Part shown: positions 2,611 to 53,465 of the stretch, one piece after another | How the letters are laid out: every line of letters starts with the position of its first letter | Position numbering within the stretch: the stretch's first letter is position 1 | From: Escherichia coli 042 | GTDB taxonomy: Bacteria; Pseudomonadota; Gammaproteobacteria; Enterobacterales; Enterobacteriaceae | Strand: one strand, 5' to 3' | DNA: 64,000 nucleotides | NCBI RefSeq assembly: GCF_000027125.1 | Contig: NC_017626.1 | The notes under the pieces: model-generated | Database searches by the model: none | Told to the model about the DNA's origin: nothing | The model's input: only the letters and a program-made list of their open reading frames with translations | Position numbers and translations under genes: made by a program

Positions 2611-3597
2611 ATGAACAACAGCGCTTTTACTTTCCAGACACTACACCCGGATACCATCATGGATGCTCTATTTGAGCAAGGGATCCGGGTGGATTCCGGT
2701 CTTACCCCGCTTAACAGCTATGAAAACCGTGTCTATCAATTTCAGGACGAAGATCGTCGACGTTTTGTCGTCAAATTTTATCGCCCTGAACGTTGGACAG
2801 CCGATCAAATCCTCGAAGAACATCAATTTGCGTTGCAGTTGGTAAATGATGAAGTTCCGGTCGCAGCACCTGTGGCCTTTAACGGTCAGACTTTATTGAA
2901 TCATCAGGGATTTTATTTCGCTGTTTTTCCAAGCGTCGGTGGTCGCCAGTTCGAAGCTGATAATATCGATCAGATGGAAGCGGTTGGGCGTTATTTAGGG
3001 CGTATGCACCAGACGGGGCGCAAACAGCTTTTTATCCATCGCCCGACCATCGGTCTGAATGAATATCTCATTGAGCCTCGCAAGCTGTTTGAGGACGCTA
3101 CACTGATACCTTCCGGGTTGAAAGCGGCATTTCTGAAAGCGACAGATGAGCTGATCGCCGCCGTTACAGCACACTGGCGGGAAGATTTCACCGTTCTGCG
3201 GCTACATGGAGACTGCCACGCTGGGAATATTCTCTGGCGCGATGGTCCAATGTTTGTTGATCTGGATGATGCACGTAATGGTCCGGCTATTCAGGATTTG
3301 TGGATGTTGCTCAATGGCGATAAAGCCGAGCAGCGGATGCAACTGGAAACTATTATTGAAGCTTATGAAGAATTTAGCGAGTTCGACACCGCTGAAATCG
3401 GACTGATTGAACCTTTACGCGCCATGCGTTTGGTTTATTATCTTGCCTGGCTAATGCGGCGTTGGGCTGATCCCGCGTTCCCGAAAAATTTCCCGTGGTT
3501 AACCGGGGAAGATTACTGGCTGCGACAGACGGCGACTTTTATAGAACAGGCAAAAGTTCTACAAGAACCCCCTTTGCAATTAACACCTATGTATTAA
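2611..3597 (+). CDS. srkA: Stress-response Ser/Thr kinase SrkA (RdoA)
   Basis: 328-aa ORF; kinase-like HGDCHAGNILW and DLDD motifs. Confidence 0.88.
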   Translation: MNNSAFTFQTLHPDTIMDALFEQGIRVDSGLTPLNSYENRVYQFQDEDRRRFVVKFYRPERWTADQILEEHQFALQLVNDEVPVAAPVAFNGQTLLNHQGFYFAVFPSVGGRQFEADNIDQMEAVGRYLGRMHQTGRKQLFIHRPTIGLNEYLIEPRKLFEDATLIPSGLKAAFLKATDELIAAVTAHWREDFTVLRLHGDCHAGNILWRDGPMFVDLDDARNGPAIQDLWMLLNGDKAEQRMQLETIIEAYEEFSEFDTAEIGLIEPLRAMRLVYYLAWLMRRWADPAFPKNFPWLTGEDYWLRQTATFIEQAKVLQEPPLQLTPMY

Positions 3598-3613
3598 TCG
3601 GAGAGAGTAGATC

Positions 3614-4240
3614 ATGAAAAAGATTTGGCTGGCGCTGGCTGGTTTAGTTTTAGCGTTTAGCGCATCGGCGGCGCAGTATGAAGATGGTAAACAGTACACT
3701 ACCCTGGAAAAACCGGTAGCTGGCGCGCCGCAAGTGCTGGAGTTTTTCTCTTTCTTCTGCCCGCACTGCTATCAGTTTGAAGAAGTTCTGCATATTTCTG
3801 ATAACGTGAAGAAAAAACTGCCGGAAGGCGTGAAGATGACTAAATACCACGTCAACTTCATGGGTGGTGACCTGGGCAAAGATCTGACTCAGGCATGGGC
3901 AGTGGCGATGGCACTGGGCGTGGAAGACAAAGTCACTGTTCCGCTGTTTGAAGGCGTACAGAAAACCCAGACCATTCGTTCAGCATCTGATATCCGCGAT
4001 GTATTTATCAACGCAGGTATTAAAGGTGAAGAGTACGACGCGGCGTGGAACAGCTTCGTGGTGAAATCCCTGGTCGCTCAGCAGGAAAAAGCTGCAGCTG
4101 ACGTGCAATTGCGTGGCGTTCCGGCGATGTTTGTTAACGGTAAATATCAGCTGAATCCGCAGGGTATGGATACCAGCAATATGGATGTTTTTGTTCAGCA
4201 GTATGCTGATACGGTGAAATATCTGTCCGAGAAAAAATAA
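3614..4240 (+). CDS. dsbA: Periplasmic thiol:disulfide oxidoreductase DsbA
   Basis: 208-aa ORF, signal peptide, CPHC active site (FFCPHCYQF). Confidence 0.95.
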
Positions 4241-4257
4241 TTCAATGTAAATTACAT

Positions 4258-4288
4258 AAAGCCCGTGAATATTCACGGGCTTTTTTTA
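4258..4288 (+). terminator. dsbA intrinsic terminator
   Basis: Hairpin GCCCGTGAATATTCACGGGC followed by T-run. Confidence 0.8.
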
Positions 4289-4394
4289 TTATTTAATAAA
4301 TATAAATACATTCTGATAATGCGTCCTGCCGCTGGACATTATTTCAGCATAAGTGGATATTCAAAGTTTTGCTGTTTTATCAGGGAATATTTAT

Positions 4395-5825
4395 ATGATA
4401 CGTAAGTCAGCTACAGGTGTTATTGTTGCGTTAGTCGTAATCTGGGGTGGTGGCACATGGTACACAGGTACGCAAATTCAGCCTGGTGTCGAAAAGTTTA
4501 TTAAAGATTTTAACGATGCTAAAAAGAAAGGTGAACATGCCTACGATATGACGTTAAGTTATAAAAACTTTGACAAAGGCTTTTTTAATTCTCATTTTCA
4601 AATGCAAATAACATTTGATAACGGTGCACCCGATCTCAATATCAAGCCAGGCCAGAAAGTTGCATTTGAAGTGGATGTTGAGCACGGTCCGTTGCCCATC
4701 ACAATGTTAATGCGTGGTAATGTCATCCCCGCACTGGCAGTGGCAAAAGTGAACTTAGTGAATAATGAACTGACACAACCGCTATTTATCGCCGCAAAAA
4801 ATAAATCGCCCTTGGAAGCGACATTGCGATTCGCGTTTGGTGGCTCATTCTCCACGACATTAGATGTTGCCCCTGCAAAATATGGAAAGTTTTCTTTTGG
4901 TGAGGGCCAGTTTACTTTTAATGGTGATGGTAGTTCATTATCTAACCTGGATATTGAAGGCAAAGTCGAAGATATTGTTTTGGAATTATCGCCATTGAAC
5001 AAAGTAACGGCGAAAAGTTTTACCATTGATTCTCTAACGCGATTAGAAGAAAAGAAATTTCCGGTTGGCGAAAGCGAGTCGAAATTTAACCAGATTAACA
5101 TTATCAATCACGGGGAAGACGTTGCCCAAATCGATGCTTTCGTTGCAAAAACCAGGCTGGATCGCGTTAAAGACAAAGATTATATCAATGTCAATCTGAC
5201 CTACGAACTTGATAAGTTAACAAAAGGGAATCAGCAACTCGGTAGTGGTGAGTGGTCATTGATTGCTGAATCTATTGATCCCTCAGCGGTGCGCCAATTT
5301 GTCATCCAGTATAACATTGCGATGCAGAAGCAGCTTGCTGCACACCCTGAGTTAGCAAACGATGAAGTTGCTCTGCAAGAAGTGAATGCTGCATTGTTCA
5401 AAGAGTATTTACCGTTATTACAAAAAAGTGAGCCGACCATTAAACAACCGGTAAGATGGAAGAATGCACTCGGCGAACTAAATGCCAATCTGGATATCAG
5501 TATTGCCGACCCAGCCAAATCCTCATCATCCACAAACAAAGATATTAAATCGCTCAATTTTGATGTGAAGTTACCGCTTAATGTCGTCACAGAAACCGCA
5601 AAACAGCTTAATTTATCTGAAGGAATGGATGCTGAAAAAGCGCAAAAGCGGGCTGATAAACAAATCAGCGGGATGATGACATTAGGTCAGATGTTTCAGT
5701 TAATCACGATTGACAACAATACCGCCTCGCTGCAACTGCGTTATACACCGGGTAAAGTTGTTTTTAACGGACAGGAAATGAGCGAAGAAGAATTTATGTC
5801 TCGTGCCGGACGTTTTGTTCATTAA
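4395..5825 (+). CDS. yihF: DUF945-family secreted/periplasmic protein YihF
   Basis: Product starts MIRKSATGVIVALVVIWGG (signal/anchor); ORF-track start at 4353 trimmed to internal ATG. Confidence 0.8.
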   Translation: MIRKSATGVIVALVVIWGGGTWYTGTQIQPGVEKFIKDFNDAKKKGEHAYDMTLSYKNFDKGFFNSHFQMQITFDNGAPDLNIKPGQKVAFEVDVEHGPLPITMLMRGNVIPALAVAKVNLVNNELTQPLFIAAKNKSPLEATLRFAFGGSFSTTLDVAPAKYGKFSFGEGQFTFNGDGSSLSNLDIEGKVEDIVLELSPLNKVTAKSFTIDSLTRLEEKKFPVGESESKFNQINIINHGEDVAQIDAFVAKTRLDRVKDKDYINVNLTYELDKLTKGNQQLGSGEWSLIAESIDPSAVRQFVIQYNIAMQKQLAAHPELANDEVALQEVNAALFKEYLPLLQKSEPTIKQPVRWKNALGELNANLDISIADPAKSSSSTNKDIKSLNFDVKLPLNVVTETAKQLNLSEGMDAEKAQKRADKQISGMMTLGQMFQLITIDNNTASLQLRYTPGKVVFNGQEMSEEEFMSRAGRFVH

Positions 5826-45672: not shown

Positions 45673-48600
45673 TTACACCTTTTCCACATTCACAAGGAAG
45701 GACTTAAACTCCGGCGTCTGCGTGTTCGCATCACCAACGAAAGGCGTTAACGTATTGGCAATAAAGCCTTTTTTAGCTACGCCTTCATAGCCCCAGTGAA
45801 TCGGAATACCGATGGTATCGATATCTTTGCCGTTCGCTTTCAGCGTGCGAATACGTTTGGTCACCACCGCTTTGGCTTTGATATAGCCACGGTTGGAGGA
45901 GACTTTCACGGTATCGCCCTGGGCAATGCCAAGTTTATTCGCCAGCGACTCCCCGATTTCCACAAACTGCTCTGGTTGCAAAATCGCGTTCAACAGCGCG
46001 TGTTTGGTCCAGTAGTGGAAGTGCTCGGTCAGACGATAGGTGGTTCCGACATACGGGAACTTATCGGCTTTACCCAACGCTTCGGCGTCGTCTTTAAAGA
46101 TACGCGCAGCCGGGTTCGAGATAACGTTTGGATGCAGCGGGTTAGTTCCCAGCGGCGTTTCAAACGGCTCGTAGTGTTCCGGGAACGGACCTTCCGCCAT
46201 CTTATCAAGGGCAAACAGACGTCCCATGCCTTCCTGCTGCATGATAAACGGCCCTACGCCGCTGCCCGGAGGCGCTGCGCTGTAGTCCGGAATATCCCAG
46301 CCGGTCCACTTAGTGCCGTCCCATTTCAGCAACTGACGCTTCGGATCCCACGGGTTACCCTGCGGATCTGCGGAGGCGCGGTTATACAGGATGCGGCGAT
46401 TAAGCGGCCATGCCCATGCCCAGCCCAGCGTGTTACCGAGGCCAGACGGATCGGCGTTATCACGGCGTGCCATCTGGTTACCTTCTGGCGTCCAGCTACC
46501 GGCGAAAATCCAGCAGCCACAGGAGGTGGTACCGTCATCGCGCAGTTGGGCGAACGAGCTAAGTTGTTGGCCTTTCTTGACGATAACCGCACCGGTTGCC
46601 GGATCGGTAATATCGGCCAGCGCCTTACCGTTGCTCTCCATCGCTACTTCTTCCGACTTCGGCTCATGCGGGATAGCGTAGTTCCAGGTCATGTTCAGCA
46701 CCTGGTCCGGGTTCGCGCCACCCTGTTCGGCATACATCTTGCGCAAGCGCAGGAAGATACCGGAGAGGATCTCGCCATCAGTCAGCGCAATCCCCGGGGC
46801 GTCCGCACCTTTCCAGTGCCACTGCAACCAGCGACCGGAGTTAACGATTGAACCGTTCTCTTCCGCGAAGCAGGTCGATGGCAGACGGAACACTTCGGTC
46901 TGGATCTTCGACGAGTCAACTTCGTTCAGCTCACCGTGGTTCTGCCAGAAGTTAGAGGTTTCAGTGTTCAGCGGGTCGATGGTGACGAGGAACTTCAGTT
47001 TCGACAGACAACCGATCACTTTGTTTTTGTTCGGGAATGAGGCAACAGGGTTAAAGCCCTGGCAGATATAGCCATTGACCTTGCCTTCTTTCATCATCTC
47101 GAAGTATTGCAGGACGTCGTAGCCTTTATCCCACTTCGGCAACCAGTCAAAGCCCCAGCTATTTTCCGCCGTCGCTTTATCACCAAAGAAGGCCTTCATC
47201 ATAGAGACGAAGAATTTCGGGTAGTTGCCCCAGTAGTTTACCTGGCCTTCCAGCAGCGGTTTTGGCGTGTTGGCGGTAAGGTAGGTTTGCAGATCGGTCT
47301 GCTTCTCGCTCGGCAGCGTCATGTAACCCGGCAGGCTCTGCGACAGCAGCCCCAGGTCCGTCAGCCCCTGAATATTGGAGTGACCGCGCAGGGCGTTAAC
47401 GCCGCCGCCTGCCATCCCCATATTGCCGAGCAGCAGCTGGATCATCGCCATCGTACGAATGTTTTGCGCACCAACAGAGTGTTGCGTCCAGCCGAGGGCA
47501 TACAGGAACGAGGCAGTTTTATCGTGAGCACTGGTTTCGGCGATGTATTCGCAGACTTTCAGGAACGCGTCTTTTGGCGTACCACAGATGTTTTCAACCA
47601 CATCTGGCGTGTAGCGGGAAACGTGCTGTTTCAGCAAGTTCCACACGCAGCGCGGATGTTGCAGCGTGGTATCGCGTTTGGCGAAGCCGTTTTCGTCCAG
47701 TTCGTAAGTCCAGGAGGATTTATCGTACTTGCGTTTTTCCGCGTCATAGCCGGTGAACAGGCCATCTTCAAAGCCGTAATCCTCACGCACGATCAGGCTG
47801 GCGTTGGTATAGGCTTCGGTGTATTCGCGGTTGAATTTTTCATTGTTCAGCAGGTACAGCAATACGCCTGACAGGAAAGCAATGTCAGTACCGGAACGAA
47901 TAGGGGCATAGTAGTCAGCCACCGCCGCCGTACGCGTAAAGCGAGGATCGATCACAATCAGCTTCGCGCCATTGTGAATTTTGGCTTCCATCGCCCAGCG
48001 GAATCCGACCGGGTGAGCTTCAGCGGCGTTACCGCCCATCACCACGACGAGGTTGGCGTTCTTGATGTCGACCCAGTGGTTGGTCATCGCACCGCGACCA
48101 AATGTTGGAGCAAGACTTGCTACCGTTGGTCCGTGTCAGACACGCGCCTGGTTGTCGACCGCGAGCATACCCAGCGCGCGGGAGAATTTTTGCGTTAAAT
48201 AGCCGGTTTCGTTACTCGACGCGGAAGCACACAGCATCCCGGTGGAGAGCCAGCGGTTAACGGTCACGCCTTCGGCGTTTTGCGCAATGTAGTTAGCATC
48301 GCGGTCTTCTTTCATCAGTTTGGCGATGCGATCAAACGCCTCTTCCCAACTGATTTGCTGCCATTTATCAGAACCTGGCGCACGGTATTCCGGAAACTTC
48401 AGACGGCTTTCGGAGTGGATGAAATCCACCAGGCCAGCGCCTTTCGGACAAAGTGCACCGCGGTTGACCGGGTGATCCGGATCGCCTTCGATATGGAAGA
48501 TAGATGCTTTGGCGTTTTTTGCTCCGTCACCGAGGCTGTACATCAACAGCCCACAGCCTACGGAACAATAGGTGCAGGTATTACGGGTTTCGCGGGTGCG

Positions 48601-48723
48601 CAGCAGTTTATACTGCCGGGTTTCCGCGAGCGCTACGCTGGGGGCAAAACCCAGTGCCGCTGCCGTGGTGCCTGCCATACCGCCAGCGCAGATCTTAAAG
48701 AACTGCCTTCTGCTGACCTGCAT
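45673..48723 (-). CDS. fdoG: Formate dehydrogenase-O catalytic subunit (selenoprotein; in-frame UGA = Sec)
   Basis: Two same-frame ORFs (45673-48087 and 48136-48723) separated only by an in-frame TGA at 48136-48138; Tat signal MQVSRRQFFK; molybdopterin oxidoreductase motifs. Confidence 0.93.
48085..48135 (-). promoter_or_regulatory. SECIS-like stem-loop immediately 3' of the fdoG UGA
   Basis: Self-complementary mRNA segment CACGGACCAACGGUAGCAAGUCUUGCUCCAACAUUUGGUCGCGGUG directly after the UGA. Confidence 0.6.
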
Positions 48724-48916: not shown

Positions 48917-49750
48917 GTGAAAAAAACACAGCAAAAAGAAATCGAAAATGTGACAAATGTCACAGGTGTTCGTCAAGTTGAGTTATGGCGGCGTGATGAT
49001 TTACAACACCCACGGTTAGATGAGGTGGCGGAAGAGGTTCCCGTTGCGCTGGTCTACAACGGCATTTCGCATGTAGTGATGATGGCGTCACCCAAAGACC
49101 TTGAGTACTTTGCGCTCGGTTTTTCGCTTTCCGAGGGGATTATCGAAAGTCCACGCGATATCTTCGGTATGGATGTCGTTCCTTCCTGTAATGGTCTGGA
49201 AGTGCAAATTGAGCTTTCCAGCCGCCGCTTTATGGGGTTGAAGGAGCGTCGCCGGGCACTGGCGGGACGTACGGGATGTGGCGTGTGCGGCGTGGAGCAA
49301 CTTAATGACATCGGAAAACCGGTGCAGCCGCTACCGTTCACCCAGACGTTTGATCTCAACAAACTGGATGATGCATTACGTCATCTCAATGATTTCCAGC
49401 CAGTGGGGCAACTGACCGGTTGTACTCACGCCGCCGCCTGGATGTTGCCATCTGGCGAACTGGTCGGCGGGCATGAAGACGTGGGTCGCCATGTGGCGCT
49501 GGACAAACTGTTAGGCCGCCGGTCACAAGAAGGGGAAAGCTGGCAGCAAGGTGCGGTACTGGTTTCCAGTCGTGCCAGTTATGAAATGGTGCAAAAGTCG
49601 GCGATGTGCGGCGTAGAGATTTTGTTTGCGGTGTCTGCCGCGACCACGCTTGCTGTAGAAGTGGCTGAACGCTGTAATTTGACGCTGGTGGGCTTTTGTA
49701 AACCGGGTCGGGCAACGGTTTATACCCATCCGCAGCGTTTGAGCAATTAA
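48917..49750 (+). CDS. fdhD: Formate dehydrogenase accessory sulfurtransferase FdhD
   Basis: 277-aa [25 protein letters not shown]... Confidence 0.93.
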
Positions 49751-49754
49751 TTAA

Positions 49755-49793
49755 AATAAGTCCTGCGATATATATTAAATTGCAGGACTTATT
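49755..49793 (+). terminator. fdhD intrinsic terminator
   Basis: Hairpin AAGTCCTGCGATATATATTAAATTGCAGGACTT followed by T-rich run. Confidence 0.7.
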
Positions 49794-49799
49794 CATTTC

Positions 49800-50461
49800 G
49801 TGAATTTTATTATTTTATTTATAAACAAAACGCGTGTAGTGGCGTTAACGCCTGCGCTGCAACCTATTGATGGCGTGGCGGTGAGTTATATTGATGCTGC
49901 CGTGGCGTTGGGTAATACCATTAACGAAATGGATAAATATTACACCCAGGAAAATTATAAAGACGATGCGTTTGCGAAAGGGAAAACGCTGCACCAGACA
50001 TTCTTAAAAATCTTGAAGCCTTTGAACCTGTAGCAGAATCTTATCATGCGGCGATTCAGGAAATTAACGATAAGCGCCAGCTTGCGGAATTGAAAAATAT
50101 TGAAGAAAGAGAAGGGGAAACATTCCACTACTACTCTCTGGCAGTCATGATTTCAGCGAAACAAATTAATAACCTGATATCGCAAAATAAGTTTGATACA
50201 GAAGCGGCAATGAAGAAAGTGTCTGAACTGGAAACGCTGGTGGCGCAAGCCAAAGAAGCGGATAAAAGCGGCATGAATTTCTCGTTTATTAATTCGGCAG
50301 GCCAGTATCAACTCGAGGCTAAAAAATACGTTCGCCGCATCAGAGATAAAGTCCTGTACTCTGACTGGGATAAAGAGCAACTTCAGGACGCAAACTCAAT
50401 CTGGATGGCCGAAGACTCATTTCCCGAGAGCATTATGCGAGTACAACGAAATGGTCGATGA
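49800..50461 (+). pseudogene. Frameshifted, probably 5'-truncated gene remnant in the position where I expect yiiG
   Basis: Two overlapping open frames (49800-50033; ~49963-50461) consistent with one ancestral ORF split by a frameshift near 49960-50035; no plausible N-terminus or RBS. Confidence 0.4.
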
Positions 50462-50881
50462 AATATTTCAGTCAATTGTAATCGCGGGGCGGGTTTGTGA
50501 TGAGCGCGGATATGTCACGAAGTCGTGACAATATAAAGCAGAGTGAAGGATAAATTTTGTGAATAAAGTATCATTATTTAATGATTTTGTGAATGTTTAA
50601 ATGTCTCAGATAATTTGTTTAAGCGTTATTTATATTTGTGGCTTATGAGTCAGCGTGAATCATATCTAATATTTTTTACGATATTTAGTTAAAAACGGCA
50701 CTATTGTTATATTCCTCACGTTCCAGGAAATCAGCGGATTTACTCATATTATATGGCGGGATACTATCCATCGGCCTGCTGAAGTTGGATTAAAAATTCG
50801 AAAGTGCACACCTTATATTTCTCTATATACGTATTCCTTTTGGAAAGCGTAGGGTCTCTTTTATTTCAGGGAACGTAAATA

Positions 50882-52276
50882 ATGAAAAAATCGACATTAT
50901 CTTTAGCCATCGGTTTATTATTGGCATGTAGTACCGGATTGGCAAAAACACAGCATTTAACGCTGGAACAACGCATGGCATTGCTGGAAGAACGCCTGGA
51001 AGCGGCAGAAATGCGGGCAGCAAAAGCAGAGAGCCAGGTTAAACAGCTGCAGACACAACAAGCCGCTGAGATCCGCGAAATTAAGGCTGCCCAGGGCAAT
51101 ACGCCGGTAAATGGACAGGCAACGGCGGAATCTGCAAAGAAAAATTCCACCTCACCTAATCTTTTGCTCTCAGGTTATGGCGATTTAAAAATCTACGGCG
51201 ACGTAGAATTTAATATGGATGCGGAAAGTAATCATGGCCTGCTGGCAATGACCAACGCTGATGTGAATAGCGATCCCACTAATGAACAGTGGAATCTCAA
51301 TGGTCGTATTCTGTTAGGTTTTGATGGTATGCGAAAACTGGATAATGGTTATTTCGCCGGGTTCTCCGCACAACCGCTGGGGGACATGCACGGTTCAGTA
51401 AATATCGATGATGCGGTATTCTTCTTTGGCAAAGAAAACGACTGGAAGGTCAAAGTAGGCCGTTTTGAAGCCTACGATATGTTCCCGCTGAATCAGGATA
51501 CCTTTGTTGAACATTCCGGTAATACTGCGAACGATCTTTATGACGATGGCAGCGGTTATATCTATATGATGAAAGAGGGCCGCGGGCGCTCTAACGCTGG
51601 CGGTAATTTCCTCGTCAGCAAACAACTTGATAACTGGTATTTTGAATTAAACACGTTACTTGAAGACGGAACATCTTTATATAATGACGGTAATTATCAT
51701 GGACGCGATATGGAGCAGCAGAAAAATGTTGCTTATCTGCGTCCAGTAATTGCCTGGTCGCCGACGGAAGAATTCACCGTTTCCGCAGCGATGGAAGCGA
51801 ACGTAGTAAATAATGCTTATGGTTATACCGATAGCAAGGGTAATTTTGTCGATCAGTCCGATCGTACCGGCTATGGTATGAGCATGACCTGGAATGGCCT
51901 GAAAACGGATCCGGAAAATGGCGTCGTGGTTAATCTTAATACCGCCTATTTAGATGCTAATAATGAGAAAGATTTCACTGCCGGGATTAACGCGCTGTGG
52001 AAACGTTTCGAGCTGGGTTATATCTACGCGCACAATAAGATTGATGAATTCAGCGGTGTAGTTTGTGATAACGACTGCTGGATTGATGATGAAGGGACGT
52101 ACACCATTCACACCATTCATGCGTCTTATCAGTTCGCTAATGTGATGGATATGGAGAACTTTAATATTTACCTCGGGACGTATTACTCCATTCTGGATAG
52201 CGACGGTGATAAAAAACACGGTGATGATACTGATGACCGTTACGGGGCACGCGTTCGCTTTAAATACTTCTTCTGA
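50882..52276 (+). CDS. Outer-membrane beta-barrel, carbohydrate-selective porin-like (OprB/ScrY-type) with N-terminal coiled coil
   Basis: 464-aa ORF; signal peptide MKKSTLSLAIGLLLACSTGLA; heptad-like LEQRMALLEERLEAAEMRAAKAESQVKQLQ; C-terminal ...VRFKYFF. Confidence 0.65.
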   Translation: MKKSTLSLAIGLLLACSTGLAKTQHLTLEQRMALLEERLEAAEMRAAKAESQVKQLQTQQAAEIREIKAAQGNTPVNGQATAESAKKNSTSPNLLLSGYGDLKIYGDVEFNMDAESNHGLLAMTNADVNSDPTNEQWNLNGRILLGFDGMRKLDNGYFAGFSAQPLGDMHGSVNIDDAVFFFGKENDWKVKVGRFEAYDMFPLNQDTFVEHSGNTANDLYDDGSGYIYMMKEGRGRSNAGGNFLVSKQLDNWYFELNTLLEDGTSLYNDGNYHGRDMEQQKNVAYLRPVIAWSPTEEFTVSAAMEANVVNNAYGYTDSKGNFVDQSDRTGYGMSMTWNGLKTDPENGVVVNLNTAYLDANNEKDFTAGINALWKRFELGYIYAHNKIDEFSGVVCDNDCWIDDEGTYTIHTIHASYQFANVMDMENFNIYLGTYYSILDSDGDKKHGDDTDDRYGARVRFKYFF

Positions 52277-52316
52277 TGAAGGCGCGGTGCTGGATATTTT
52301 CCGGCACCGCAACTCA

Positions 52317-52631
52317 TTAAGGCAGGTAAAACACTTCTTGCAGCTCGCTACTGACTGGGCTGTTATCCGGGTTAGCTGGCATAACGTCGGTCATATATTT
52401 CCACCAACGTTGGCAAACATCAGTACTGGCTACCGCATTCCACCGTTCTTCAGATTCAATCTCTACCGTGGCAAACAGCAGATTACGCGCTTTGTCGAGG
52501 TAAATGGCGTAGTTATGCGCACCGTGAGATTTCAACACTGCTTCCAGTTCCGGCCAGATTGGATTATGCCGACGCTGATACTCTTCGTGGGCGTCGGGGT
52601 TAACCTGCATGACAAAGGCTTTGCGGATCAT
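52317..52631 (-). CDS. rhaM: L-rhamnose mutarotase
   Basis: 104-aa [25 protein letters not shown]... Confidence 0.92.
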
Positions 52632-52640
52632 GTTTGCTCC

Positions 52641-53465
52641 TTACAGCGCCAGCGCACTGGCGAGTGGTGTAACGCCGAAACGCTGGCCGAGCGCTATCAG
52701 CTCTTCACGGCTGATGGTCTGTTTCATGCCGCCCATCGAATAAACCTTCACTAATACTTGTGCTGATTTTTCTGCGGTGTCGATTAAACCGAATGTTTCA
52801 TCCAGTGTCGGACCGCTGCCGAAGACGCCGTGGAAGGGCCACAACACCAGCGAATGTTTTTGCATTTCCTGTGCGGTCGCCTGGCCGATTTCGTCGGTGC
52901 CGGGCACCATCCACGGCAGAATGCCAACGCCATCCGGGAACACTACCAGACACTCAGTGCTGCCTTCCCACAGTTGGCGAGTGAAGACCGCGGTGTCGTT
53001 TTCCAGTACGTAGGTAAGGGCGATCAGGTTGGTGGCATGGCAGTGCATGATCACCCGATCTTTACCGTTGGTGGCTTTAATGCGTTCGCAATGAGAGAGG
53101 AAGTGCGCCGGAAGTTCAGAGGTTGGAACGGCTTCGTGAGTTAGCCCCCAGAGAATATGGTAGCCCGCGCCGTCGCTGTCGACTTTTACGACGCCTAAGT
53201 TAGCCGCAGGATCAAGCTGGACGTTGCGGAAGAATTTGCCGGAGCCGGTGACAATAAACGGTGTATTTGCCAGTAAAGGCATGGGCTGGCTGAGCGGGAT
53301 ATAGCGCGGTTGTTGGTGGAAGTTGTCGTGATACGGTGCGATATCGGCGTCATCCAGGCGCAGTGTCAGGTTACCACCATTGCGCTCGTCCCAGCCTTTC
53401 AGCCAGGCGTCGGTGGTGGCTTTGATCATTCCCTGGACAAACCAGGACTGGGTAATGTTTTGCAT
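52641..53465 (-). CDS. rhaD: Rhamnulose-1-phosphate aldolase
   Basis: 274-aa product from [20 protein letters not shown]-track start at 53555 runs into the upstream REP and is judged too long. Confidence 0.92.

Follow-up and report, generated by a model that had tools for sequence, protein, structure and literature searches.

Probable stepwise decay of yiiG, a predicted lipoprotein gene downstream of fdhD, in Escherichia coli 042

Introduction

In Escherichia coli K-12 the gene that follows fdhD is yiiG, which encodes a 351-aa protein of the YiiG family (WP_001295677.1; Pfam DUF3829, PF12889). The K-12 protein matches positions 2-285 of the 285 positions of the DUF3829 profile (E 3e-103), and its N-terminus, MKRNLLSSAIIVAIMSLGLTGC, reads in sequence as a lipoprotein signal peptide that includes a lipobox. 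Members of the family were described as predicted lipoproteins of unknown function in a paper on a Stenotrophomonas homologue (PMC11047544). Our literature search returned no study of YiiG function in E. coli, the gene name alone being swamped by unrelated matches; the DUF3829 literature that was found held nothing on E. coli, and a search for solved structures with sequence similarity to YiiG gave none.

Inactive forms of the gene have also been recorded. The NCBI PGAP annotation of the orthologous locus in ECA64, UM146, NMBU-W13E19 and 2012C-4502 gives a pseudogene, 'YiiG family protein; frameshifted; incomplete; missing N-terminus', and the form with an extra 135-bp deletion, found in strain 8178, is labelled "DUF3829 domain-containing protein; incomplete". 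A yiiG pseudogene between fdhD and a porin gene is thus ordinary and already known from this annotation. As for the way in which such alleles arise, a deletion between short direct repeats classically leaves a single copy of the repeat as its footprint.

Here we describe the corresponding locus of E. coli 042 in a stretch of 64,000 nucleotides of contig NC_017626.1, which is called the window throughout. A preliminary description had taken positions 49800-50461 of the window for a probable pseudogene, frameshifted and without a credible 5' end. The lesion map against K-12 presented below agrees with this, and so does the PGAP call on the orthologous locus. We conclude that 49800-50461 is almost certainly a non-functional, decaying yiiG remnant, and that both small open reading frames in it are by-products of the lesions.

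Results

Identity and position of the remnant

The gene order in the window is a formate dehydrogenase gene of the fdoG/fdnG type on the minus strand, fdhD (48917-49750, stop codon at 49748-49750), the yiiG remnant, a porin gene, and rhaM and rhaD on the minus strand. The remnant shares with K-12 yiiG its chromosomal position downstream of fdhD, and the fdhD-yiiG synteny with K-12, EDL933 and others marks this position as orthologous. Its identity, which the preliminary description had proposed as YiiG, was verified by tblastn of the K-12 protein against the window: two segments in different frames were matched (E 3e-109), the first to YiiG residues 138-198 (58/61 identical) and the second to residues 194-337 (134/144 identical). 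In the retained segments the DNA identity to K-12 is 96.6-98.8%, and 192/205 residues are identical when the ancestral frames are read.

Both pieces are DUF3829 sequences and both score above the PF12889 gathering cut-off of 26.8 bits, the first covering profile positions 64-124 of 285 (E 1.4e-22, 81.1 bits) and the second positions 151-271 (E 9e-28, 98.1 bits). The window contains no complete DUF3829 domain in one frame, only internal parts of it split over two frames, and no lipoprotein signal peptide or lipobox cysteine, codons 1-138 being deleted. The remnant differs from the K-12 gene in lacking yiiG nt -63 to +414 and the last 6 codons and in having two frameshifts, one of -1 and one of +1, and it cannot encode YiiG. 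The span had also been considered too short for a gene of about 350 aa, an expectation that fits the 351 aa of K-12 YiiG.

Anatomy of the lesions

The lesions were located by a base-by-base comparison with the intact K-12 yiiG; all positions given for the remnant itself are on the plus strand. MAFFT placed the 5' gap ambiguously, the upstream sequence that is retained being similar to the coding sequence around the repeat described below; the placement was settled by a pairwise alignment favouring long gaps together with a base-by-base map of matches on the left and right. Four lesions were found: a 478-bp deletion, a -1 frameshift, a +1 insertion and a 3' truncation. Codons 1-138 were removed by the deletion together with the ATG, the ribosome-binding region and the lipoprotein signal peptide. 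At the junction (49839-49846) lies the 8-bp repeat GTGGCGTT, which is present twice in K-12, upstream of yiiG and at codons 136-138, and once in the window.

Downstream of the junction the first piece of yiiG, ancestral codons ~139-194, occupies 49839-50005 in window frame 3 and is 98.8% identical to K-12 at the DNA level. It is followed by the -1 frameshift at 50006-50010, where the A6 of K-12 (yiiG nt 577-582) is reduced to A5, the shift falling at nt 582 in codon 194; past this point frame 3 ends at the TAG 50031-50033. The second piece, ancestral codons ~195-332, lies at 50006-50418 in window frame 2 with 96.6% DNA identity. A single A inserted at 50419, after yiiG nt 995 in codon 332 and not within a homopolymer, returns the ancestral frame to window frame 3, in which the third piece, ancestral codons ~333-346 (PRALCEYNEMVD), is found at 50420-50460. 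Beyond about 50460 (codon 346) there is no further homology to yiiG, and neither the last 6 codons nor the stop codon is present. Frame 2 itself continues past 50419 with ESIMRVQRNGR up to the TGA 50459-50461, and because of the shift these last 11 residues of its open reading frame are nonsense. We also considered the two indels as mutual compensation and rejected it: the ancestral frame is regained after 50419, yet nothing is rescued, since frame 3 has already ended at 50033 and the intervening 138 codons are read out of register.

The open reading frames that result correspond closely to those noticed before. Frame 3 is open from stop to stop over 49779-50033, and its first start codon, GTG 49800, opens 77 codons that run to the stop at 50033, as had been stated. 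Frame 2, which is -1 relative to frame 3, is open over 49961-50461 and holds an open reading frame of 123 codons; the frame and its end had been given correctly, while its start is 49961 rather than about 49963 and the overlap of the two frames is 73 nt rather than about 70. The earlier explanation of the overlap by a single indel stands for the A5 frameshift, which splits the remnant into two frames, but is incomplete, since there are also a second indel (the A at 50419), a deletion of 478 bp and a truncation at the 3' end. The tblastn search with intact YiiG that the preliminary description had recommended shows the gene to be truncated at codon 138 and frameshifted at codon 194. No single correction restores an intact reading frame, given the two indels and the loss of 478 bp and of the last 6 codons.

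The start region

The fdhD stop codon is followed by an intrinsic terminator on the plus strand (49755-49793), which consists of a hairpin with a 15-bp stem and a U-rich tail. The hairpin has a folding energy of -19.9 kcal/mol (z -6.97), and none of 200 shuffled sequences was as stable. Thus GTG 49800 sits right behind the fdhD terminator, as the preliminary description had it. The terminator stretch is 98.6% identical to the fdhD-yiiG intergenic sequence of K-12, and the predicted terminator is retained intact from the ancestral intergenic region, directly upstream of the remnant.

The first 13 codons of the 77-codon frame, MNFIILFINKTRV (49800-49838), align to positions 1601-1639 of the K-12 locus, where the yiiG ATG is at 1704, that is, to sequence upstream of yiiG. 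Judging from this alignment, they are former fdhD-yiiG intergenic DNA that would stand in frame by chance through the 478-bp deletion, and not ancestral coding sequence. The N-terminus of the 77-codon frame has this intergenic origin and no lipobox. The reported lack of a ribosome-binding site was confirmed as well: no Shine-Dalgarno-like motif precedes any start codon in either frame, with the sole exception of an AGGA inside the terminator stem. A consensus promoter scan of the plus strand gave no promoter-like site ahead of either the remnant or K-12 yiiG, and since the native yiiG promoter was not picked up in K-12 either, the scan is silent on promoter loss. The one terminator-like site that the scan gave, on the minus strand (49846-49829) at the deletion junction, was dismissed as chance level (1 found, 1.0 expected).

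The 3' breakpoint

In K-12 the frvRXBA operon (4.8 kb) lies between yiiG and rhaM. It is absent from 50461-52316 of the window, which contains instead the gene of a RafY-like glycoporin (50882-52276, 464 aa; PF16966, E 3e-154); this arrangement with the porin in place of frv is common to about 1166 of the 5426 complete E. coli genomes. A stretch of 85 bp on the plus strand (50463-50547) is 73% identical to K-12 sequence just upstream of frvA (blastn E 1.2e-8), from which it follows that the frvRXBA block is absent and that its near breakpoint clipped the 3' end of yiiG. The stretch itself is a putative relic marking the far side of the missing block. Among strains that retain frv, frvR is annotated as frameshifted in some, namely SW4848 (locus positions 3277-5024) and ET565 (locus positions 1834-2365), which suggests that the whole neighbourhood is under weak selection.

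Spread of the lesions among E. coli genomes

Each lesion was searched for in 5426 complete E. coli genomes with short queries designed to seed a megablast match only when the lesion is present. The exact junction of the 478-bp deletion (46-mer) was found in 1460 of them, including ATCC 25922, ST131, UM146 and several APEC strains, while the 5' yiiG segment that is missing from the window is kept in 3916. The diagnostic 49-mer of the A5 frameshift matched at least 211 genomes and the 45-mer of the inserted A at least 315. The lesions are therefore population alleles and not assembly errors.

The lesions occur in different combinations. SW4848, NMBU_W05E18 and 4069 carry the 478-bp deletion only, without either frameshift, and keep frvR and the native 3' end; the remnant of the SW4848 type is one unbroken frame of about 213 codons. 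The 3' clip accompanies the deletion in the other truncated alleles, together with the inserted A and no A5 in 2012C-4502 and NMBU-W13E19, with A5 and no inserted A in UM146, with both in the window and in ECA64, and with an additional 135-bp deletion, spanning the frameshift site, in 8178. The PGAP pseudogenes of ECA64 (ACZ0L9_RS07680) and UM146 (UM146_RS28210) share with the window the identical junction and a downstream context of the porin type; the former shares all four lesions and is the closest relative of the remnant (99.6% identical over 711 bp). The window has a few substitutions of its own, for example A259T, and S326I is found otherwise in SW4848 only. Since the lesion sets differ by lineage, the two small frames are not conserved as units, which answers the question whether they might be independently conserved.

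The 478-bp junction stands on differing downstream haplotypes in an identical form, K-12/SW4848-like in some genomes and EDL933-like in NMBU_W05E18 and 4069. A junction shared by diverged haplotypes points either to recombination between backgrounds or to recurrence at the 8-bp repeat.

The strain 2017-03-3CC (locus positions 3211-3987) has a 777-bp IS1 at nt 498 of an otherwise full-length yiiG, and ISVsa5 between yiiG and frvR; the IS1 insertion is an independent inactivation of the gene. A full-length allele with a DNA identity of only about 83% to the common type was seen in 147 complete genomes, for example in Z135-1 (locus positions 2643-3686), where a 2.3-kb hypothetical gene and a gene for an ATP-binding protein lie directly upstream of yiiG in place of fdhD. 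Strain 702/18, whose yiiG is of the common type, likewise has a hypothetical-protein gene in the fdhD position. This upstream content points to an insertion or to the import of a segment.

Selection on the remnant

Variants were compared over the retained codons 139-345, the intact control being small (6 alleles). Those private to truncated alleles were 13 nonsynonymous and 5 synonymous, compared with 3 and 13 for those private to intact alleles (Fisher p=0.0026), and the changes in truncated alleles include P>L, R>C and G>S. The predominance of nonsynonymous private variants in the truncated alleles shows relaxed selection. Among the five closely related intact alleles the pairwise pN/pS was 0.05-0.16; it was 0.25-0.28 for intact pairs that include the divergent Z135-1 allele, and mostly 0.1-0.5, still below 1, among truncated alleles. 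Judging by shared polymorphism, the values below 1 are probably due to truncated alleles being mosaics that share variants with functional alleles by recombination, and they may also be compatible with residual constraint.

Discussion

The remnant combines homology to yiiG at the orthologous position, disabling lesions, relaxed selection and heterogeneous decay among its carriers, and no protein product is expected from it. We propose that the primary inactivation was the 478-bp deletion between the two copies of GTGGCGTT, which took away the 63 nt before the gene together with the start codon, the lipobox-bearing signal peptide and codons 1-138. The junction sequence points to replication slippage or microhomology-mediated deletion as the mechanism. 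With microhomology-mediated (slipped-strand) deletions the locus has in common that a perfect 8-bp direct repeat flanks the segment and that one copy is kept; it differs in that here the mechanism is deduced from the junction sequence. In the alignment the 135-bp deletion of strain 8178 also begins and ends at similar strings, GGGAAAAC. The existence of SW4848, NMBU_W05E18 and 4069 with the deletion only indicates that it is independent of the other lesions and probably came first. Once selection was gone, a -1 slip in the A6 run, the inserted A and the 3' loss would have followed, the last 6 codons probably being lost together with the adjacent frvRXBA operon.

One might argue that the loss of YiiG was selected in the carrier lineages instead of being neutral decay. 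In Stenotrophomonas maltophilia frameshifts in a YiiG-family lipoprotein are reported to have been selected in an antibiotic experimental evolution (PMC11047544), so that the loss of a YiiG-type protein can be advantageous in some settings. Under adaptive loss, the 478-bp junction might have spread by recombination between diverged haplotypes or have arisen repeatedly at GTGGCGTT. We consider adaptive loss improbable in E. coli, and the present evidence favours neither recombination over recurrence nor a selected loss of YiiG.

A second explanation is that one or two shortened but functional proteins, C-terminal DUF3829 parts read from an internal or new start, are still produced from the remnant, which would in effect be a new short gene. 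Two sizeable frames (77 and 123 codons) do remain, each scoring as DUF3829, the SW4848-type strains have a single long frame, and pN/pS among truncated alleles is below 1. However, the signal peptide and lipobox needed for lipoprotein export are gone, the starts have no Shine-Dalgarno motif and a strong terminator directly upstream, the boundaries of the frames vary between lineages, the private variants are mainly nonsynonymous, and of the 285 positions of the DUF3829 profile only 64-124 and 151-271 are covered. This makes a functional short protein very unlikely, and a decaying remnant remains our reading.

Even less can be said for an artefact of sequencing or assembly, in which yiiG would be intact in the organism and the frameshift a homopolymer miscall. 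The -1 lesion does lie in a run of A, a typical place for indel errors of long reads, but errors of base calling cannot yield a 478-bp deletion or a 3' truncation. Moreover, the junction and both indels recur in independent complete genomes at the counts given above, ECA64 carries all three together, and the inserted A is outside a homopolymer, which leaves practically no room for this explanation. The reverse direction of change, a short ancestral form in which an insertion gave K-12-type strains the 5' part of yiiG (and also frvRXBA), is just as hard to credit. For the frv and porin regions, which are alternative gene contents, either direction of change may hold. For yiiG itself, this explanation is refuted by the K-12 protein, which spans DUF3829 end to end while the window has internal parts only; besides, the highly diverged Z135-1 allele is full length too, the segment present only in the long form is bounded by an 8-bp direct repeat, which is a deletion signature, and the short form has neither start codon nor signal peptide.

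The decay of yiiG also shows that about 27% of sequenced E. coli can do without YiiG, which is a conserved lipoprotein. Its exact anatomy, with a deletion between 8-bp repeats, independent frameshifts and a 3' clip at the loss of frvRXBA, is that of a textbook stepwise gene decay, and the lesions could serve as convenient lineage markers. The value of these findings is modest; the pseudogene call is correct, and the standard NCBI annotation had already made it for more than a thousand E. coli genomes.

Two observations concern the surroundings of the remnant. Over 49000-52700 of the window (3.7 kb) the best of the 5426 complete genomes is 98.9% identical, and compared with the 99.6% identity of the remnant alone to ECA64 the region looks mosaic in the alignments. 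Further upstream, fdoG (named fdnG by PGAP; 45673-48723, minus strand) appears as two open reading frames of 195 and 804 aa split by a TGA at 48136-48138 (...NQARV*HGPTVASL). We rejected fdoG as a second pseudogene, because this in-frame TGA is the selenocysteine codon known from the formate dehydrogenase alpha-subunit family.
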